Shown: piece after piece, positions 1,976 through 44,157 of the stretch
Layout: each line of letters begins with the position of its first letter
Position numbering within the stretch: the stretch's first letter is position 1
DNA from: a virus
Lineage: Duplodnaviria > Caudoviricetes
Strand: one strand, 5' to 3'
Virus record (IMG/VR): IMGVR_UViG_3300028048_000063
Span: 1-64,000 of that record
DNA: 64,000 bases
Notes under the pieces: generated by a model
The model's database searches: none
Told to the model about the DNA's origin: nothing
Seen by the model: the letters and a program-made list of their open reading frames with translations, nothing else
Program-made: the position numbers and the translations under genes

Positions 1976-2761
1976 ATGCCAAATTGGGTTATGAACAGAA
2001 TTATCCTTGCAGGAAAGGATGCAGAAACAGTAGCAAACAAGATCTTATCAAAAGATCAAAACACAGGTAGAGAGTATATGGACTTCAACAACATCGACAG
2101 AATGCCAGAGAGTTTAAACTGTATATGTGGATCTTGTACCACACCTGCACTTGAATACTACCTCACGACAATCAATCCAGATATGCCGGAGTATAAAGGT
2201 GAAAAACTTTCTAAAGCAAAGTACGCCAAATATCTTAAAGCAGTTAATTCTGCTGACAAAGAACGAAAGGTGTACGGCAAGAACGAGTTTGATGTACAAC
2301 CAACAGACTTCGACACTATGGGTGGTGAAAAGGGCTATCTTACTTACGGTAAGACTATAGCAGATAACAGAGCCAACTATGGATGCAGTACCTGGTACGA
2401 ATGGAGCAGAGCACATTGGGGTGTAAAATGGAACGCATCTGAAAGCAGAGTACAACATGATGATGATGAAGTAATAATATACTTCGAGACACCTTGGGAT
2501 GGAGTTACAAAGCTAATATGCAAGTTAGCACAGATGTGTAAAGATGCTCAAGTCACTATCAACTACGACTTTTCTGAAGAGCAGGTTGCTTTTTATGAAA
2601 AACACATGTACTTCGAACATGGAGAGCTCATAAATGGCTGTTATTACGACGAAGGTAGTAAAGAAGCTACAGAGCACTTCATGGAACTCTGGGGACTTCA
2701 AGATGAATTCTACTGGAGTGAAGAAGAAGGATGCTACAAAGCAAAATGGCTTGATGACTAA
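1976..2761 (+). CDS. DUF1281/YubB-like (ferredoxin-like fold) protein
   Basis: MPNWVMNRI start, WYEWSRAHWGVKWNA and FETPW motifs. Confidence 0.75.
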   Translation: MPNWVMNRIILAGKDAETVANKILSKDQNTGREYMDFNNIDRMPESLNCICGSCTTPALEYYLTTINPDMPEYKGEKLSKAKYAKYLKAVNSADKERKVYGKNEFDVQPTDFDTMGGEKGYLTYGKTIADNRANYGCSTWYEWSRAHWGVKWNASESRVQHDDDEVIIYFETPWDGVTKLICKLAQMCKDAQVTINYDFSEEQVAFYEKHMYFEHGELINGCYYDEGSKEATEHFMELWGLQDEFYWSEEEGCYKAKWLDD

Positions 2762-10278: not shown

Positions 10279-10353
10279 TGGAGCTGGAGGTGAGAGTCGA
10301 ACTCACAACCTGCTGATTACAAATCAGCTGCTCTGCCATTGAGCCACTCCAGC
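10279..10353 (-). tRNA. tRNA-Thr(UGU)
   Basis: Cloverleaf GCTGGAG...GCTGA-TT-TGT-AA-TCAGC...GTTCGAC...CTCCAGC-T-CCA. Confidence 0.93.
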
Positions 10354-10359
10354 AGATTT

Positions 10360-10447
10360 TGGCGGAGAGTACAGGGCTCGAACCTGTACAAGTCTTGCGA
10401 CTTGGAGAGATTAGCAATCTCTTGAGATACCATTACTCCAACTCTCC
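10360..10447 (-). tRNA. tRNA-Ser(GCU)
   Basis: GGAGAGT acceptor, AGAGA-TT-GCT-AA-TCTCT anticodon arm, long variable arm, G73, encoded CCA. Confidence 0.93.
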
Positions 10448-10540
10448 GTAAGTGCCGGCACAACCCGGCGAGCAATCATTTCGATTGGAGTTCCCCGACT
10501 TTAATTTTCTCACACTTCGGTATCGGGTGGTGGATTTTTG
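10448..10540 (-). ncRNA. candidate structured ncRNA between tRNAs (unassigned)
   Basis: GC-rich spacer with stems CCCGAT/GTCGGG, CAATC/GATTG and GCCGG/CCGGC; no family recognised. Confidence 0.35.
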
Positions 10541-10617
10541 TGGGTGCAGAGGTAGGATTCGAACCTACAACCTTCAGGTTATGAGCCTGAGAAGCTACCG
10601 TTTGCTAGCACTCTGCG
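10541..10617 (-). tRNA. tRNA-Met(CAU), initiator-like
   Basis: C1:A72 mismatch, TCAGG-CT-CAT-AA-CCTGA anticodon arm, GTTCGAATC T-loop, encoded CCA. Confidence 0.88.
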
Positions 10618-10621
10618 ATGA

Positions 10622-10702
10622 TGGTGGACCTGGTCGGTGCTGCCCCGACGTTCTGTGGAGTGCACTTCGGCTTTAACCACAGTCGAAACTTTTCTCAGGC
10701 CC
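10622..10702 (-). ncRNA. minimal tmRNA-like RNA (tRNA-like domain only, no mRNA-like domain)
   Basis: GGGCCTG/CAGGTCC acceptor with G3:U70, A73-CCA, stemless D region ending TTTCGAC, helix CTGTGG/CCACAG, 3-nt AAC linker, T-arm GTCGG-GGCAGCA-CCGAC. Confidence 0.75.
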
Positions 10703-10704
10703 GA

Positions 10705-10977
10705 TTAATCGAATATGAATCCTCTAACTTGAATACATCCTTCTGGAGTATCTAGAATTCGATCAAAGCAATAATTGAATGTCGACGCATATTCTGTCAA
10801 CTCTCCACAAGTTGAATTCTTGCCAAAATATAAAGGTTCATTTGTTTCTTCGTCTACGTATGTTTTCAGATATTCGTTTACATCTTTCTCGGCTTCTTTT
10901 AATGTATCATAGAAACCTACAAGATACCAGTTATTATATTCGTCTACAAAAACTACTTCATATTTCTTTAATTCCAT
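10705..10977 (-). CDS. hypothetical protein
   Basis: Probable start MELKKY at 10977 after GAGGGG. Confidence 0.7.
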   Translation of the reverse strand: MELKKYEVVFVDEYNNWYLVGFYDTLKEAEKDVNEYLKTYVDEETNEPLYFGKNSTCGELTEYASTFNYCFDRILDTPEGCIQVRGFIFD

Positions 10978-10996
10978 ACTGAATAAAACCCCTCTT

Positions 10997-11578
10997 TTAT
11001 TGTATTTTTTCACAGAATTCTGCTGCTTTTGCGGCTAGATCTGATAATGTCCCGTTGTTGTCAATTACATAGTCGTAATTGTAATTTAATACATCTGCAT
11101 CAGCATGATTTGAACAAGTGGCCTCTTCTGCTGAAGCACGGTGAATAAATAATGTTTTGGCATTAACACGTTTAACCATCTTTGCTATTTCTTCAGGTTC
11201 ACGGATATGTACAAAAACTACTAAATTATTGTACTCCTCACCATATGTTTTTTTATGAAAAATATGATCAGAAATTGACTCCATGATTTTGTTATATGGG
11301 ACGTCGTTCCAACGTGTTAAGAGGTCTTTTAGATCGCTCAAGAACTTACGATCTTTCTCTGTTTTTGTGCCATCCCAACCAGCTTGTTTTGCGATCGATT
11401 TAACGAAATCTACTGAGGAAACAGCATAGGATCTATTCTCTCCAAGATATTGTTGGCAGAGTTGTGTAAATGTGTCTTTACCTGATCTTTTAGCTCCGTT
11501 CACACAGATCACTTTACAGTACTTTTTTACTGTTTCTTCATTTAATGAATTCTTTAAATTATTGTATTCGTTAGTCAT
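10997..11578 (-). CDS. deoxynucleoside monophosphate kinase-like P-loop protein
   Basis: NGAKRSGKDTF Walker A, HIREPEEI, C-terminal YDYVIDNNGTLSDL. Confidence 0.8.
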   Translation of the reverse strand: MTNEYNNLKNSLNEETVKKYCKVICVNGAKRSGKDTFTQLCQQYLGENRSYAVSSVDFVKSIAKQAGWDGTKTEKDRKFLSDLKDLLTRWNDVPYNKIMESISDHIFHKKTYGEEYNNLVVFVHIREPEEIAKMVKRVNAKTLFIHRASAEEATCSNHADADVLNYNYDYVIDNNGTLSDLAAKAAEFCEKIQ

Positions 11579-28511: not shown

Positions 28512-30035
28512 TTATTTTGGCTTATTCCTTTTATATCTTATACTTAGACTGCCATCTGTTGAGACCCCTTCGATCTTTCCGACACCTTGTGTAAACGGAG
28601 TTTTAGTAGATCTAACATGGAACATATTATCTTTTCGTACGCCATAAACAATTAATTTGCTTCCTCGTTTAAACCATGACTCATCAAATACAGTTTTCTT
28701 TTTTGTTTCAGGATCTAATTTACTAAGCTTTGCATTGAAATCTACAAAAGTCTTAGCAAAGAATTTAGCATCTACGACACCATCTGGAGTTAGCAAGCTA
28801 ACTGTATGACGAATGTTGTTGTTCCCTATTACTGTGCCAACAATGTTGCAGTACTCTGTATTCTTAGGATCTTCTGGTAAATCAAAGAAATTACGGACAT
28901 CATACTTTTGTTTATTGACGTTCCCTAATTCATGACCGCTATGATAATAACACATAGTTTCCATCTCCCAAGTAGATGGTGTACCTAAACAATATTTATC
29001 AATGAGCTTTTGTTTGAAGTCATCTTGTAATAATTGTTGATATGCTAGTCTACCACTCTCTGAATTGAAGAAATCCATCAATGGTTTGATACTTTCATCA
29101 TAAACACGTGTAAAGCTAGCTTTTTTCATGAATACGGAGTTATCTGGAAGATCTCCATATTCGCTCTTTGATAAACTAAGTTTAGATTTGAAGAATGTAT
29201 TGAAAAATCTAATACAAGCTTCTTCAGTTAAGACATATCTATTCGAATTTTTATCGAATTGATTTTTATCTATATATTGTTTAAACTTAAACATTCTAAT
29301 TTGTTCATTGAACTGTGGAATGTCTATACTTAGTTGTAATGCTTTTTTGATCTGTACAGATGTTAACTTGTCTTTTAATTCGATCTCTTTATCTGCCAAG
29401 ATTTGTAAATAACGATTAATAATATACATACGAGTATTATTTGGGTAGAGGGAGTCGAAACATCCTGCCTTGATCAACCCAAGCATTTGGACTGGAGTAG
29501 GGTTAACTTTTTCGACAAAGTCCTCAACCTTTTGATATGGTCTGCCCTTAAAGATCCTGTCTAAAAGATCTGGGTTAACCACATTAACTGTTTGTAAACT
29601 ATATAATATGCTATTATTTTTAACGTCTGGAATAAAGTCAACTTGAGCAGTATTAATGTCTGGGAGTTCTACAATAATGCCTTTATGTTGAGCGTCAGAA
29701 ATAGCTTTTGCAACTTTTCTGTAATCAGGAGCAGATCTTTTAACTTTTACACCATCTGAAGATTCTTCAGACTCTTCTTCGTCTGTTTCTTCTTCTATGG
29801 TTTCTTGTTCCATTTCATCTTCTTCTGTAAGCTCCTCTAAGCCATCTGTGTAGTTCCCCGCATTAATACACAAACATGCGCATTGCCAATAAAGTTGATT
29901 CCAACGAGTTGCTAGATTCATTTCTTGTAATGCGATAAGGCTATAAGGTAATGTATGATTCAATGAGAAAGAATACCCCAATTGAGGTTCTATACAACGT
30001 TTCCATACATAATCTAAAAATTCTTTCCTTGCCAT
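28512..30035 (-). CDS. dnaE: DNA polymerase III alpha subunit, C-terminal half of a split gene
   Basis: LGYSFSLNHTLPYSLIA (= GYGFNKSH motif), ELPDIN, LIKAGCFDSL, WEMETMCYYHSGHEL, OB fold; own RBS and promoter. Confidence 0.88.
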   Translation of the reverse strand: MARKEFLDYVWKRCIEPQLGYSFSLNHTLPYSLIALQEMNLATRWNQLYWQCACLCINAGNYTDGLEELTEEDEMEQETIEEETDEEESEESSDGVKVKRSAPDYRKVAKAISDAQHKGIIVELPDINTAQVDFIPDVKNNSILYSLQTVNVVNPDLLDRIFKGRPYQKVEDFVEKVNPTPVQMLGLIKAGCFDSLYPNNTRMYIINRYLQILADKEIELKDKLTSVQIKKALQLSIDIPQFNEQIRMFKFKQYIDKNQFDKNSNRYVLTEEACIRFFNTFFKSKLSLSKSEYGDLPDNSVFMKKASFTRVYDESIKPLMDFFNSESGRLAYQQLLQDDFKQKLIDKYCLGTPSTWEMETMCYYHSGHELGNVNKQKYDVRNFFDLPEDPKNTEYCNIVGTVIGNNNIRHTVSLLTPDGVVDAKFFAKTFVDFNAKLSKLDPETKKKTVFDESWFKRGSKLIVYGVRKDNMFHVRSTKTPFTQGVGKIEGVSTDGSLSIRYKRNKPK

Positions 30036-30078
30036 GTTTTCTCCTTTAGGGGCGTGATATTTCACACGCCCTCTATAT

Positions 30079-36377: not shown

Positions 36378-38768
36378 TTACTTATCTTGCAGCCCTTTTC
36401 TAAAGAAATCTTCTTTTAGTTTTATCAACTGCTTTTGTTGTTTTTTTGCTATAGCTTTACGGGCAGCATTTGCTTCGCCAAGCGTAAATCCACAGACCTG
36501 TGGATCCATTAATATCCTCATGAGAACTTCCTGGGAACCAGAAACACCGTTAGTACCTTGTAAATACTTTTTCATAATCTCTATCTCATCATCTGTAAGT
36601 CCTTCCTCGTACATCTCTAATAACCATGCCTCAGGATTATCTCTGAAACGCACATAACGATCGATAGGTTGTTCTATATCTTCTGTTTGTAGCCTCATGA
36701 TCGAGTTAACTTCTGCTAATTGCATAACATTTTCTGGTCTTGCTTTTTCAATACAAACAGCCCCAACCTGTGTATCAAATTGGAATAGATCACTAATCTT
36801 TCCTTCTGCTGCATTTTTCCACATCTGTGGATCCTTGTATTCAAGTACGTCTGGATGTATGTATTTATCATACGTTGCACGTAAACTTCCTTGCCATTCA
36901 ATTAAACCATCTCTTAATAAAAGCTCTAAGCATTTAGCTATTTTCGATTGTGCGTTTGTACGCAATACGTCCATTTTTAATGCACCCATATCATCAGAGT
37001 CATGCATATTAAATGCTGTAATCTTAACTTTATTAGGAGCTCTCATTAAACTGTTTTGAGCGAGATAACCATCATTAAAAACATATAATGCACTAGCATG
37101 TATACTTGCATTTGTAGGGATACCTTCAACCTTTCTAATAGCTTCGAACAAACCAGGATATGCTCTAATTTTATCTTCAAATCCTGCAACAGCTTCAAAA
37201 CCCTGCTCTTCGTCTCCATATAAACATTGATCTAAGGTATAAGAATTACCTCTATGAAAAGGCACAAGGGCTGCTAAAGCTTGCATTTCATCGCTATTAT
37301 ATCCAAGTCCTCTACCACAACATAAAATAGCTGAACGTAAGGACTCGGTCTTGAATGTTGCGCAGTTGAGAACATTATCTTCTCCGTAGGTTTTTTTAAG
37401 AAGTTCTGTAATATCTTTTGTTCTCTCTGGTTGGAAGTCTTCATCCACATCTGGAAGCTCTACTCTTTCTTTATTTAAGAAACGCCAATATGGAAGATCA
37501 TACTGTAAAGGATCTGCTTGAGTAATACCTAATAAATAATTAATATAGAAACCACAAGCGCTACCTCTGCCGACTCCACATAAGCTTACATTCCAAGCTA
37601 TGTCTACTATATTTTTTGTAAGATTTAGATAAGCACTTAGCTTTTGACCTAGACGTGTACTAATATAATCTAAAATGTCTAATTCGGTATTTATTCTATC
37701 TATTTTGATATCATCAAGTACTACATTCTTATTTTTAATACCCTGTTCGATTTGATACATTAAATATACATCTTGTTGGTCATCGCTCTCATAAAACTTC
37801 TTAATCATCGGATATTTTCCATTTTCGCAAAAGTTATATAATATTTGCGATAAAGTAAATTCAGGAATTTTAATTTTTGGAACGATAGTACCGTGTCTAA
37901 AATCAATATTTTCTATCTGATCGGCAATTTTACAAGTATTTTCAAAAGCTTTTTTGATTTGGTCTTCTGTTAATCCGCCAGCCATTAAAATAGTTTTCAT
38001 TTCATCTTCTGTCATGATATAAGTAAAACGATAAAACTTTTCAGTTTCACGATCTTTACTTTGTCTACTATTCAAGAAAGCTGAGTGAATACCAAAATCA
38101 TTTTTATCTAAATAATGACTATCTGTTGTAACGATATATGGAATGTCATAATGTTCCGCCATTTTAATTAATACACCGTTGACTTTAATTTGTTCTTCAT
38201 TATCTGATGGTTGTAATTCTAAAGAGAAATTATCTTTGCCGAAGACTTTAATACACCAACGTATAAACTCGTTTGCTTTACTTACGTCATGTTCTAAGAT
38301 TTTATTAGGTAAGAACCCACCCAAACAAGCTGTAGATCCAAAAATGTGTCCTGGGTTAGATCCTATAACCTTCTCGATATCTTGATATGTTGTTGGAACT
38401 CTCATAATGCCTTTTTCAAAATATCCACGTTCCCATGCGATAGAAGATAATTGTTTAAGTTGGTACCACCCTTCTAAATCTTTAGCCAATAAGATAAAAT
38501 GATAATACTTATTAGTATTACCTATCTCACTTTCATCAATAAGATAAATTTCATTTCCAAAAATAATCTTAAAATCTGGATTTGTGTCTTTAATTTTATC
38601 TTTCGTTTTAAGTATATCTATCGCTGAAGATAGAGCTTCATGGTCTGTAAAAGCTATACCAGAAAAACCAAGAGATATGGCTTTATTTACCATATCTTCT
38701 GGTCTGTTTATACTATCTAAAAAACGAATATTTGACGAATACGTGTGATTATGAAGTGATGTAAACAT
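36378..38768 (-). CDS. dnaE: DNA polymerase III alpha subunit, N-terminal half (PHP plus palm/thumb/part of fingers)
   Basis: HNHTYSS, FTDH, TTDSHY, GVGRGSACG, RFLNKERVELPDVDEDF (catalytic Asp pair), KMDVL, LFQF, ARKAIAKK. Confidence 0.92.
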   Translation of the reverse strand: MFTSLHNHTYSSNIRFLDSINRPEDMVNKAISLGFSGIAFTDHEALSSAIDILKTKDKIKDTNPDFKIIFGNEIYLIDESEIGNTNKYYHFILLAKDLEGWYQLKQLSSIAWERGYFEKGIMRVPTTYQDIEKVIGSNPGHIFGSTACLGGFLPNKILEHDVSKANEFIRWCIKVFGKDNFSLELQPSDNEEQIKVNGVLIKMAEHYDIPYIVTTDSHYLDKNDFGIHSAFLNSRQSKDRETEKFYRFTYIMTEDEMKTILMAGGLTEDQIKKAFENTCKIADQIENIDFRHGTIVPKIKIPEFTLSQILYNFCENGKYPMIKKFYESDDQQDVYLMYQIEQGIKNKNVVLDDIKIDRINTELDILDYISTRLGQKLSAYLNLTKNIVDIAWNVSLCGVGRGSACGFYINYLLGITQADPLQYDLPYWRFLNKERVELPDVDEDFQPERTKDITELLKKTYGEDNVLNCATFKTESLRSAILCCGRGLGYNSDEMQALAALVPFHRGNSYTLDQCLYGDEEQGFEAVAGFEDKIRAYPGLFEAIRKVEGIPTNASIHASALYVFNDGYLAQNSLMRAPNKVKITAFNMHDSDDMGALKMDVLRTNAQSKIAKCLELLLRDGLIEWQGSLRATYDKYIHPDVLEYKDPQMWKNAAEGKISDLFQFDTQVGAVCIEKARPENVMQLAEVNSIMRLQTEDIEQPIDRYVRFRDNPEAWLLEMYEEGLTDDEIEIMKKYLQGTNGVSGSQEVLMRILMDPQVCGFTLGEANAARKAIAKKQQKQLIKLKEDFFRKGLQDK

Positions 38769-41445: not shown

Positions 41446-44157
41446 TTAAAAATCAAAACCGATATCATCATCTTCATCCGAGGTACCTGTATAAGCATTC
41501 TCGAATTTCTCTTCCTTTGTACTATCTAATAAGATTTCAATGTTAGTATCTTCAATAGGAAGAATAATACCTTTACTATCTGTCACGAAGCAATCTGTCC
41601 ATTGGCATACGGATCTATCAAAGTATCCATATAATTTAATATTTTGATAACTACCTGCACGAACTTTATAAATATTAATAACAAAGTTTGGAGCAAGCTC
41701 AAATCCTCTAGCGCAATAACTATCAATAATCGACTGATCAATTTCTCTAACAGGCATAAGAATACAACCAACGTCTACCTTATCTGCTAATGATTTTGCA
41801 GATCTTAAATAAGATGCGTCTAGATCTTTAGCATTCTTATAATCACCTGATAATTGCGAAGCTGTCCATATATAAATACCCAATGTTTTAGCTGCATCTT
41901 TTAATGCAGATGAGAACATAAGTAAAATTTGGTCAGTTCTAAGTCCTTGTACTTTTGTTTGTCTAGCTGCAGATGATGTTATTTTTAAAGTTTCACCTAA
42001 GTAGTCAAATATTACATAATTGACGTTATATAATTGTTTGTATTTTTTAATAATGTTAATAATATCGTTAACATCATAATTGGTAATACTTACAAAATAT
42101 AGATTAGATTGTTCAATTAATTCTATAGCTCTATCAACTCTTTCTTCTTCTCCTGGGGCATATCTACCATCTTTGATATGGTTTTCAGGAACACCACCAA
42201 CGAAAGCCATCCACATTTGTTGACATTCATTTTCTTCTAACTCAGTGGAAATAACTAATACGGACTCTTGCATATTTGTCTTTATCCATGCCTGACGTTG
42301 TACGTCATAATATTCAGGTATAGCAAGATGGCAAGCTTCCGAATTACCGATACGTGTATTGTGCGTAACGATAAAATTCTCCGTCAAGAACAAGTGTTCG
42401 TTATTATCCACTAAGAAACAAGTCATGTCCTCCTGATATCCTAAATCCTCAATTTTAATCATTGGATTGCTTCTATGTTTGTGCGTACCTTTATTATTTT
42501 TAGACTTTTCATACCATGATTGCATTTTTTGGCGTTTTAAACTAAGTTTGAATAATCTATTTTTTAATTCAGGACTACCCATAATTTGTACTAAATATCC
42601 TATGTTAGTGGATTTATGAGTATCAACAAAAATAGATGTTGAGAACCCTAGACTTTGGGCTAATTCAGTAACATCATCTCTTAATTGAGGACTAATTGTA
42701 AAGAAAGATACTCTGCCTCTTTTATCAACACAGCCATCTGTATCTAATAACCCATTTAATAATTCAAATCTATTGTCAATACTATCTTCTAAATATACAC
42801 GCGGTATAAATTTAGTCTGGCTATTTGTATTAATAAGATCTGGATGTTCTTTTAGGGCGTCTCTCACCCAAACATTTTTACTTCCTTTTTTACGGTTAAT
42901 ATTAGAACTTATATCACTAAGATTGTTAAAACTAAAAGTCCATGCATAAGTAGTTTTATGTTTTTTAACTGACCAATTCATTGTGTTACCAATAATAGAA
43001 GGTAATTCTTCATTTGCAGAAGAAAATTCAAGCCCTTTATTAGATTCTTGTTCTTTAAGACAACCGTCTCCTAAAAGTAATCCTAGGATATATGGTGGTA
43101 AAAAGTGCTGTTTTGGGGAATACTCAAGAGCTTGTTGTTGTGGTACCAATATGGTGTATTCACCATTTTGACGTAACGGTTTGTCGTTCATAATCTCTTT
43201 TAAGGTCTTTGTATAAAATATCCTGTCTTCTACAGATTTGATACGCTGACCATTAGAATTATAACTCCACAAATGTTCATCACTACAACGACATGTTCTT
43301 CCGTCTCTAAAAGTTATTTGGTATACTTCTTGTTTACCTTGTGGATATACGCCCAATACTTTAGTAGGATGTCCTTTGGCATCAAATAAATAATCTCCAA
43401 CTTTAATATCTTGTACATTTTTCCATCCTACAGTAGTTGGTATTCTACTACTATTTGGTAACGCTTTGCCGTACCCACTTGGAGCTGACTCTAAGAATAA
43501 ACAACCTCTACGTTGCCCACGTACGATTGTTGTAAGCTTTGGAGAGACTAATGGTAAACCCATTTCAGGAGTTTGTTTAAATCTTTCTTTTAACTCTCTT
43601 AGTCCATCTCCAGCCTTATTTTCAACACGGTCGCTATTACTACCATATTTCTCTTTTGCTAGGATTATCTTTGTTTCTTCTTTCAATAAAATATCGTTTA
43701 TGCTTAAAGCATCAAAATTCTCATACATTCTAGCACTCTCTACTGGATCCACAATATCAGGATCATAGATATCTCGTGTATCAATTCCTTCAGCTTTTAA
43801 GTTATTTATTAAACTATATTTTTTTAGAGTTTGATAATAATAATCAAACTTCTTTTCATCATAAATATTGAGAGCATTCTGTATATACTCTACACCCTTG
43901 TTGTTGCAAAAAACTTTATACTGTACAGTATATTGTTTTAGAAATTGATCTATGTCTATATAGTCAATTTTTTCCATTCCCTTTTTCGCCAAATATTCGA
44001 TAGCCCCGAACAAAATCTTATGAAATTGTTCTGGAAAATCTTCTATTGAAAAGCTATAATTATTATTAGCAAACAATAATGGATTTTTAATTAGTGCCGC
44101 TAATACATGAATTATCGCTAATTTATTGGAAGCTGCATTGTTAACTTCTTGCGACAT
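41446..44157 (-). CDS. dnaB: DnaB-like replicative helicase containing an intein
   Basis: Walker A APSGYGK|T split by the intein, ISTEL, IFDYL, TASQLS, KSLADKVD, KVRAG. Confidence 0.9.
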   Translation of the reverse strand: MSQEVNNAASNKLAIIHVLAALIKNPLLFANNNYSFSIEDFPEQFHKILFGAIEYLAKKGMEKIDYIDIDQFLKQYTVQYKVFCNNKGVEYIQNALNIYDEKKFDYYYQTLKKYSLINNLKAEGIDTRDIYDPDIVDPVESARMYENFDALSINDILLKEETKIILAKEKYGSNSDRVENKAGDGLRELKERFKQTPEMGLPLVSPKLTTIVRGQRRGCLFLESAPSGYGKALPNSSRIPTTVGWKNVQDIKVGDYLFDAKGHPTKVLGVYPQGKQEVYQITFRDGRTCRCSDEHLWSYNSNGQRIKSVEDRIFYTKTLKEIMNDKPLRQNGEYTILVPQQQALEYSPKQHFLPPYILGLLLGDGCLKEQESNKGLEFSSANEELPSIIGNTMNWSVKKHKTTYAWTFSFNNLSDISSNINRKKGSKNVWVRDALKEHPDLINTNSQTKFIPRVYLEDSIDNRFELLNGLLDTDGCVDKRGRVSFFTISPQLRDDVTELAQSLGFSTSIFVDTHKSTNIGYLVQIMGSPELKNRLFKLSLKRQKMQSWYEKSKNNKGTHKHRSNPMIKIEDLGYQEDMTCFLVDNNEHLFLTENFIVTHNTRIGNSEACHLAIPEYYDVQRQAWIKTNMQESVLVISTELEENECQQMWMAFVGGVPENHIKDGRYAPGEEERVDRAIELIEQSNLYFVSITNYDVNDIINIIKKYKQLYNVNYVIFDYLGETLKITSSAARQTKVQGLRTDQILLMFSSALKDAAKTLGIYIWTASQLSGDYKNAKDLDASYLRSAKSLADKVDVGCILMPVREIDQSIIDSYCARGFELAPNFVINIYKVRAGSYQNIKLYGYFDRSVCQWTDCFVTDSKGIILPIEDTNIEILLDSTKEEKFENAYTGTSDEDDDIGFDF
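42358..43464 (-). mobile_element. 369-aa class-3 (Ala1, WCT) intein with LAGLIDADG homing endonuclease
   Basis: Starts ALPNSSRIPT, block B SDEHLW, LGLLLGDG and LNGLLDTDG, block F MTCFLVD, ends IVTHN, +1 Thr. Confidence 0.9.

Follow-up and report, generated by a model that had tools for sequence, protein, structure and literature searches.

The literature that we searched contains one phage tmRNA reduced to its tRNA-like domain (TLD), that of mycobacteriophage DS6A ('TLD only'; Mao et al. 2009, cited in PMC4131195 and PMC11915505), and the 2025 tmRNA database holds nine entries classed as 'standard, no CDS' among 97,179 sequences (PMC11915505). According to these sources, a DS6A-like molecule strongly inhibited tmRNA in E. 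coli, perhaps through titration of SmpB (PMC4131195, PMC11915505), and this inhibition was independent of chargeability (PMC4131195). Tag-less tmRNAs also exist in mitochondria (jakobid and oomycete; RF02544) and, at about 65 nt, in plastids (PMC11915505). They share the tRNA-like domain and the missing tag frame with the element described here, but they are mostly permuted and occur together with an imported SmpB, whereas a phage-borne RNA must use the SmpB of its host.

We analysed a window of 64,000 nt from a 150,079-bp viral record, which is rated 100% complete, has about 33% GC and comes from an uncultured phage. At 10622..10702 on the minus strand the window contains, as judged from sequence, fold, homologues and covariation, a mini-tmRNA gene that is limited to the tRNA-like domain and measures 81 nt with its encoded CCA. 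The initial annotation had claimed a tmRNA cut down to its alanyl tRNA-like domain without a tag and was aware of no characterised phage example; the first claim is supported by the homologues and by the link to DS6A, and the second is superseded by the published DS6A 'TLD only' molecule (PMC4131195, PMC11915505), to which the window element adds a new member. The window element is very probably a functional 'TLD-only' mini-tmRNA gene of the DS6A kind.

The minus-strand letters quoted in the initial annotation match the window exactly, and the minimum-free-energy fold reproduces the layout that it proposed. The acceptor stem is formed by the 5′ strand G1-G7 at 10696..10702, including G3 of G3:U70, and the 3′ strand with U70 at 10626..10632 (7 bp). 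It is followed by a stemless D region of 13 nt at 10683..10695, which ends in UUCGA, lacks GG and matches the RF00023 consensus ...GGaUUCGAC; the identical D region is found in five homologues (L012, L023, L098, L121 and L144). Helix P2a has 6 bp between 10677..10682 and 10653..10658, with five of the six pairs changing on both sides in the family, and the 3′ strand is likewise placed by family covariation. Between the two strands, an 18-nt loop (10659..10676) stands in place of the pseudoknot/mRNA ring, as had been claimed, and contains a mini-hairpin of the pairs 10671:10662 and 10670:10663. The linker AAC at 10650..10652 (GAC in the family and in the tmRNA consensus) leads to the T arm at 10633..10649, with a 5-bp stem and the 7-nt loop GGCAGCA, which is of the kind seen in alpha-type and permuted tmRNAs. 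The discriminator A73 and the encoded CCA occupy 10622..10625. Thus the AlaRS identity elements G3:U70 and A73, the encoded CCA, the stemless D region with UUCGAC, helix P2a and the 3-nt linker are all present as first described.

The first two linker bases face A20 and G19 in a G.A junction of the tmRNA type, and the Rfam tmRNA model counts G19:A, A20:G and C21:G as part of P2. In the window the 3′ side of this junction reads G-A-A-C versus the consensus G-G-A-C, so one position is A.A and not A.G; the first linker base in the family is G in 16 of 20 members, C in two and A in two. The folding energy of the window element is -29 kcal/mol (z = -2.1), and 5 of 200 shuffled sequences folded equally well. 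The single-sequence fold therefore only weakly beats chance, and the strong evidence is comparative.

The phage genome encodes a DnaE-type polymerase, TopA, RecD2, an intein-bearing DnaB and ORFs of 1385-3416 aa, and we found no close cultured relative, including by blastn against 50,697 phage records. The mini-tmRNA is present in a single copy (97 bits with the family model R2 described below) and is the first gene of a minus-strand array, followed by tRNA-Met (CAU; 10541..10617), 4 nt downstream, a 93-nt spacer (10448..10540), tRNA-Ser (GCU; 10360..10447) and tRNA-Thr (UGU; 10279..10353). The three tRNAs were called by both ARAGORN and Rfam, they are the only tRNAs that ARAGORN found in the whole genome, and all share an encoded CCA with the mini-tmRNA. 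The same order of mini-tmRNA and tRNA-Met recurs in the viral contig L087. Upstream, an ORF of 102 aa without a family match (10705..11013) ends with its stop codon 2 nt before the mini-tmRNA, and since it lies on the same strand, the two are likely co-transcribed. Promoter-like and terminator-like sites near the tRNA cluster were at chance level.

The spacer contains scrambled fragments of the mini-tmRNA: 12 6-mers and six 7-mers are common to both, in scrambled order (shuffle p ~0.0004), and just three of the 3186 genome windows compared did as well. The spacer does not fold significantly (z = -0.6); its k-mers suggest that it may be a second copy that has decayed or been rearranged, and tandem mini-tmRNA copies are present in two viral contigs (L151 and L152). 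The tRNA-Met (10541-10617, minus strand) has C1 opposite A72, a mismatch typical of bacterial initiator tRNA. Its anticodon stem, however, ends in just two G-C pairs at the foot and its discriminator is C, so that it may be either an initiator or an elongator. Two replication genes of the window were also noted: the DnaB-like helicase (41446-44157, minus strand) carries a LAGLIDADG/Hom_end intein, and the DnaE-type domains are split over two ORFs (36378-38768, and 28512-30065 on the minus strand) that flank an ORF of 2060 aa, with PHP, NTPase and finger domains on one and HHH_6 on the other.

Formal annotation tools gave no call for the window copy. ARAGORN (window and whole genome; no tag peptide) and Rfam at gathering thresholds were both negative, and blastn against the 50,697 phage records matched the true tRNAs and not the mini-tmRNA. 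An exact 26-mer from the 5′ half of the element was absent from the viral contigs searched. With E up to 10 on 96 nt around the element, a search of 4,227 Rfam families returned three matches, two of them to tmRNA families (tmRNA_permuted, 17.1 bits; alpha_tmRNA, 11.1 bits) and the third a chance-level 15-nt snoRNA. The two tmRNA matches span the T arm and the 3′ acceptor strand only and lie far under threshold (cut-offs of 47 bits for RF00023 and 47/50 bits for RF04321/RF01849). On 601 nt, likewise with E up to 10, the tmRNA_permuted match was at chance level only. RF00023 gave no match to the window copy at all, the mitochondrial tmRNA model RF02544 gave none at E up to 10 on the 96 nt, and the tRNA model RF00005 gave none at E up to 10, with ARAGORN silent as well. 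The window copy fails the Rfam tmRNA threshold because of its unusual T-loop and the missing GG in the D-loop. Being below every Rfam tmRNA threshold, its assignment rests on homology.

Through motif scans, we found homologues of 79-82 nt in 22 viral contigs and four bacterial MAGs. Two scans covered viral contigs, one fixing only the T-loop and CCA and the other only the D-region and loop motifs; a third scan, of bacterial genomes, contributed the MAGs (Victivallales/Lentisphaeria and Bacillota). The acceptor stem was left unconstrained in the second and third scans, and the conservation of D-region and loop motifs among their matches is partly search-driven, while the matches of the first scan show it independently. 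A covariance model built from the window sequence alone (R1) recovers all homologues at E 1e-19 to 1e-7, the E-values of R1 and R2 being rough. Further matches of the genome scan, in Methylomonas, Hyphomicrobiales, Clostridia, Hydrogenedentota and Bacteroidia, were rejected as chance (best R1 E 0.17-0.18), and those representatives that were run through Rfam gave no match.

Pairing holds at 98.6% of the stem cells in an alignment of 20 distinct homologues; shuffled sequences reach 69% and slid registers 39-48%. Both partners have changed in 13 of the 18 stem pairs, and the covariation score of 0.77 (versus 0.19) was reached by none of 500 shuffles. Fitting the alignment to the model biases it towards pairing, but such a bias accounts neither for the slid-register result nor for the many double changes. 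G1:C72 and G2:C71 are kept in 20 of 20 sequences and G3:U70 and A73 each in 19 of 20, while acceptor positions 4-7 covary; the T stem is 100% paired, with four of its five pairs changing on both sides. The initial annotation had called for homologues and covariation in phage databases, and these are now found. The sequence that departs from G3:U70 and A73 is a copy without the 3′ acceptor strand in a related phage (L127:1529-1608, minus strand), an apparent pseudogene, in which the 5′ half and the T arm are intact and the 3′ acceptor strand and CCA are gone.

The window element could itself be a decaying tRNA-Ala-like pseudogene without function, as the silence of ARAGORN and Rfam, the non-canonical T-loop and the decayed look of the adjacent spacer might suggest. 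Against this, covariation is strong in all three helices, distant phages and MAGs retain the loops, the D region and the junction are of tmRNA type, the homologue L135 is scored best by the tmRNA model within the tRNA clan, and the truly broken copy in L127 looks different. A tRNA-Ala shares G3:U70 with A73, the stacking of the T arm on an acceptor stem of 7 bp, and the position in an array, but it has a D stem, an anticodon stem-loop of tRNA dimensions and an anticodon, all three of which the mini-tmRNA lacks. The covariation contradicts the pseudogene reading, which we consider very improbable.

The ssrA gene is a frequent integration site of phages, which carry its 3′ end along. The element might then be an attP remnant of host ssrA, or a full-length ssrA that collapsed during assembly, and many of the T-loop-pattern matches in viral contigs are indeed tmRNA 3′ ends. 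This explanation is contradicted by the data and is the least probable of those considered here, as the 5′ and 3′ halves form a closed, covarying fold, the gene stands on the gene strand within a tRNA array, and homologues of 79-82 nt occur in more than 25 independent contigs.

The assignment to tmRNA is carried by family members that pass the Rfam threshold. Five homologues score above the RF00023 cut-off of 47 bits (L135, 63.3; L159, 64.1; L151, 58.3 and 54.9; L160, 57.6 bits). Of the checks foreseen in the initial annotation, tmRNA models and ARAGORN were negative on the window copy, and the tmRNA model was positive on these relatives. These sequences align end to end with model positions 1-374, with about 306 interior positions deleted. 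For L135, the tmRNA model outscores the other tRNA-clan families; L160 and L151 are near the window copy (74-79 bits with R1), with one base different in the D region. One-piece tmRNA (RF00023) and the mini-tmRNA have in common G3:U70, A73, CCA, the UUCGAC D region, P2a and a G.A junction followed by C ahead of the T arm, and the roughly 306 interior positions of the former (P2b-d, four pseudoknots, resume codon and tag frame) are reduced to 12-18 nt in the minis.

We built the family model R2 from the window element and 20 homologues with DS6A left out. R2 finds the DS6A TLD-only tmRNA (L005:28478-28560) at 55.3 bits (E 2e-12), whereas tRNAs and tmRNA 3′ ends reach at most 29 bits in the same search; R1 did not find DS6A. 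Since a model built without DS6A still finds it, the window element belongs to a known but barely described kind and is not the first phage example. DS6A has the same plan: G3:U70 lies in a 7-bp acceptor, the D region is stemless, 13 nt long and closes with UCGA, P2a has 6 bp and is capped by a short loop (20 nt versus 18), the 3-nt linker ends in AC, and a T arm of 5 bp and 7 loop nucleotides precedes A73. It differs by its canonical UUCGAUU T-loop and a GG in the D region, ends in CUA without an encoded CCA, lacks the exact CCGAAG motif, and lies outside any tRNA array in a GC-rich temperate actinophage. These data show a conserved, covarying RNA family with members that pass the Rfam tmRNA threshold and with DS6A among them.

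The T-loop had been likened to the GGCAGUA of alphaproteobacterial tmRNAs; the type is right and the exact letters are off, since alpha_tmRNA has GGCgGUA as its consensus. Exactly GGCAGCA is found in genuine permuted tmRNAs of viral contigs (L019, L037, L053, L025 and L013; 75-122 bits). The loop is not diagnostic of tmRNA in its own right, because ordinary phage tRNAs carry GGCAGCA too. Two-piece tmRNAs of Alphaproteobacteria and relatives (RF01849, RF04321), some of them phage-borne, share the GGC-R-G-Y-A T-loop and a D region without GG, but they are circularly permuted, consist of two RNAs and have a tag frame, whereas the mini-tmRNA keeps the standard order in one piece without a tag. Among minis with U/A-type T-loops, 10 of 11 have GG in the D region, compared with one of eight among those with RGCA-type loops (Fisher p 0.0012, the sequences not being phylogenetically independent), and eight of ten permuted tmRNAs with GGCAGCA are also without it. 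As the loss of GG tracks the RGCA T-loop in both minis and permuted tmRNAs, the odd T-loop is a natural variant, and by this comparison the D-loop and T-loop of the window copy read as a coherent tmRNA elbow without decay.

In the 18-nt loop, the motif AAA-N-CCGAAG-Y-G-N-AC is conserved, also in homologues found with the T-loop-only pattern, and it was kept while all three stems turned over. It contains a 2-bp hairpin, the closing pair of which is GC in nine, CG in five, UA in three and other or unpaired in three of 20 sequences; these positions were free in every search pattern. The first loop triplet is GCC in only 9 of 20, and we rejected the idea that it is a vestigial or conserved alanine resume codon, as it covaries as a base pair. 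Pairing of the loop with a separate coding piece was also rejected, because no complement of at least 9 nt exists elsewhere in the genome. The segment after P2a in full tmRNA (P2b/PK1, Rfam consensus), from which the loop might descend, has only a loose resemblance to it. A 68-nt member in L073 (6363-6430, plus strand; R2 45.7 bits) has P2a capped by 6 nt without CCGAAG, and therefore the loop module is not universal.

Instead of SmpB, the loop hairpin and the tRNA-like body might attract another host or phage protein that ordinarily recognises tRNA or tmRNA, serving it as a decoy or dock; RNase R, defence nucleases and modification enzymes would be candidates. Retention of the loop motif and its covarying closing pair through the turnover of the stems would fit such a role, as would the separate, mobile character of the minis with respect to resident tmRNAs, and phage proteins that handle tRNA/tmRNA fragments and RNase R are known (PMC11662646). 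Yet the partner is only hypothetical, the genome contains no complement of the loop, DS6A and L073 are family members by R2 without the exact motif, and the conserved tmRNA-specific junction points to SmpB. We regard the dock as an improbable main role.

The gene is unevenly distributed. Four carriers (L012, L024, L077 and L127) are related to this phage, with DnaE about 50% and RecD2 about 42% identical. Among the closest complete relatives, G003 lacks the mini-tmRNA and G004 has only a 20-bit match at tRNA level, while the more distant complete genome G009 has it; the mini-tmRNA is therefore a patchy accessory gene and, judged by this distribution, dispensable. Synteny by two neighbouring proteins revealed four related phages with no tRNAs or element at the locus and no significant match genome-wide. 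Family members often sit within tRNA arrays. In L121, a tRNA-like RNA (2493-2575, plus strand) with a GGCAGUG T-loop, a 3′ ACCA and a poor acceptor stem ends 5 nt upstream of a mini-tmRNA (2580-2660) and may be a tandem companion RNA.

All four MAGs hold at least one mini, and three of the four hold a normal full-length tmRNA (130-162 bits). The T-loops of mini and resident tmRNA differ inside the same MAG; we therefore consider the minis a separate mobile lineage and no recent copies of host genes, and on the same ground the idea that a mini copies or closely mimics the resident host tmRNA is not supported. In the Victivallales/Lentisphaeria MAGs G006 (C33, C252 and C184) and G007 (C62), we observed three to five or more 81-nt minis each, beside one normal tmRNA, with paired mini copies about 700 nt apart; these contigs may be prophages or mis-binned phage DNA.

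Considering the gene order and the conserved features, we propose the following course during infection. The mini-tmRNA would be transcribed with the three downstream tRNAs, RNase P would cleave at G1, and trimming of the 4-nt spacer would expose the encoded CCA. Host AlaRS would recognise G3:U70 and A73, and host SmpB would bind the tmRNA-type elbow and junction, with UUCGAC facing G-N-A-C. The mini could then compete with host tmRNA for SmpB, and possibly for AlaRS and EF-Tu, resulting in less SsrA tagging and less of the linked mRNA decay. Such an RNA would depend on host factors, since the 150-kb phage genome encodes no SmpB, AlaRS, RF-1/ArfB or Pth and contains no full-length tmRNA (no RF00023 match, and no tmRNA of any form by ARAGORN); a search for smpB or a separate coding piece elsewhere in the genome, which the initial annotation had suggested, found neither.

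As the mini lacks a resume codon and has neither a tag frame nor a stop codon, competition for SmpB would be its most likely effect, and competitive inhibition is the main mode of action that we rank first, with the case for it evenly poised. The A.A junction and the non-canonical T-loop may alter the affinity of the window copy for SmpB. Taken as a whole, a gene of the DS6A kind competing with host tmRNA seems the best explanation of the sequence data, and a fairly probable one. As read from the alignment, the family shows purifying selection on structure, alanine identity and the loop hairpin. Inhibition by the DS6A-like molecule reportedly did not need charging (PMC4131195), yet G3:U70, A73 and the loop hairpin are kept, which suggests more than passive titration.

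The alanylated mini might instead act on stalled ribosomes with an empty A site, together with host SmpB and EF-Tu, as a tag-free rescue or alanine donor: the chain would end in one Ala, or several after repeated entries, and be released by a host factor without an SsrA degron. G3:U70, A73 in 19 of 20 members and a mostly encoded CCA would be expected if charging is under selection, and by the DS6A-type experiment summarised in PMC4131195 charging is dispensable for a passive SmpB sponge. In mitochondria and plastids, tag-less tmRNAs are conserved alongside SmpB, and tmRNAs with a two-residue Ala-Ala tag exist (PMC11915505). The phage genome, on the other side, has no release function (no RF-1/ArfB, no Pth), and there is no conserved resume codon, the first loop triplet varying with its pairing partner. 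We know of no experiment that shows peptidyl transfer to any bacterial TLD-only tmRNA. This role is rather doubtful, yet a serious rival to competition. Its extended form, in which the minis are alanine-charged RNAs that act on the ribosome and end or Ala-tail non-stop chains without adding the SsrA degron, with the N-C-[CGAAGY]-G-N' hairpin as the dock of a specific partner, is a speculation from sequence that we hold to be unlikely. If it were true, it would mean a phage-specific rewiring of rescue and a bacterial model for the tag-less organellar tmRNAs.

The TLD-only type is now found also in a large, low-GC, uncultured phage, and the family extends across many viral contigs and some bacterial MAGs. 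Standard annotation by ARAGORN and Rfam gathering thresholds can miss members with an alpha-type T-loop. The family alignment offers experimental handles, namely the near-invariant G3:U70 and A73 and the covarying loop hairpin, and it bears on what a message-less tmRNA does on or off the ribosome, likewise for the tag-less mitochondrial and plastid tmRNAs. For phage biology, the element suggests that small RNAs of phages repeatedly target ribosome rescue.

Several other small RNAs with the GGCAGCA T-loop were observed in the viral contigs. Ordinary-looking phage tRNAs (Phe-GAA, Ala-UGC, Val-GAC and Met-CAU; L008, L014, L021, L027, L062 and L071) carry it in place of UUCGAAU, which suggests that GGCAGCA is a recurrent alternative elbow in phage tRNAs. 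Tiny RNAs of 56 nt (L011:17-72, L054:6294-6349, L046 and L064) combine a G3:U70 acceptor, a GGCAGCA T arm and ACCA with a short connector, and look like even smaller genes of the alanine-minihelix type (about 19-21 bits with the family model). In addition, 74-nt tRNA-like genes with the same T-loop and an apparent UUA anticodon were found in L017 (3078-3151), L047 and L048 (1241-1314), and these are possible ochre-suppressor tRNAs.
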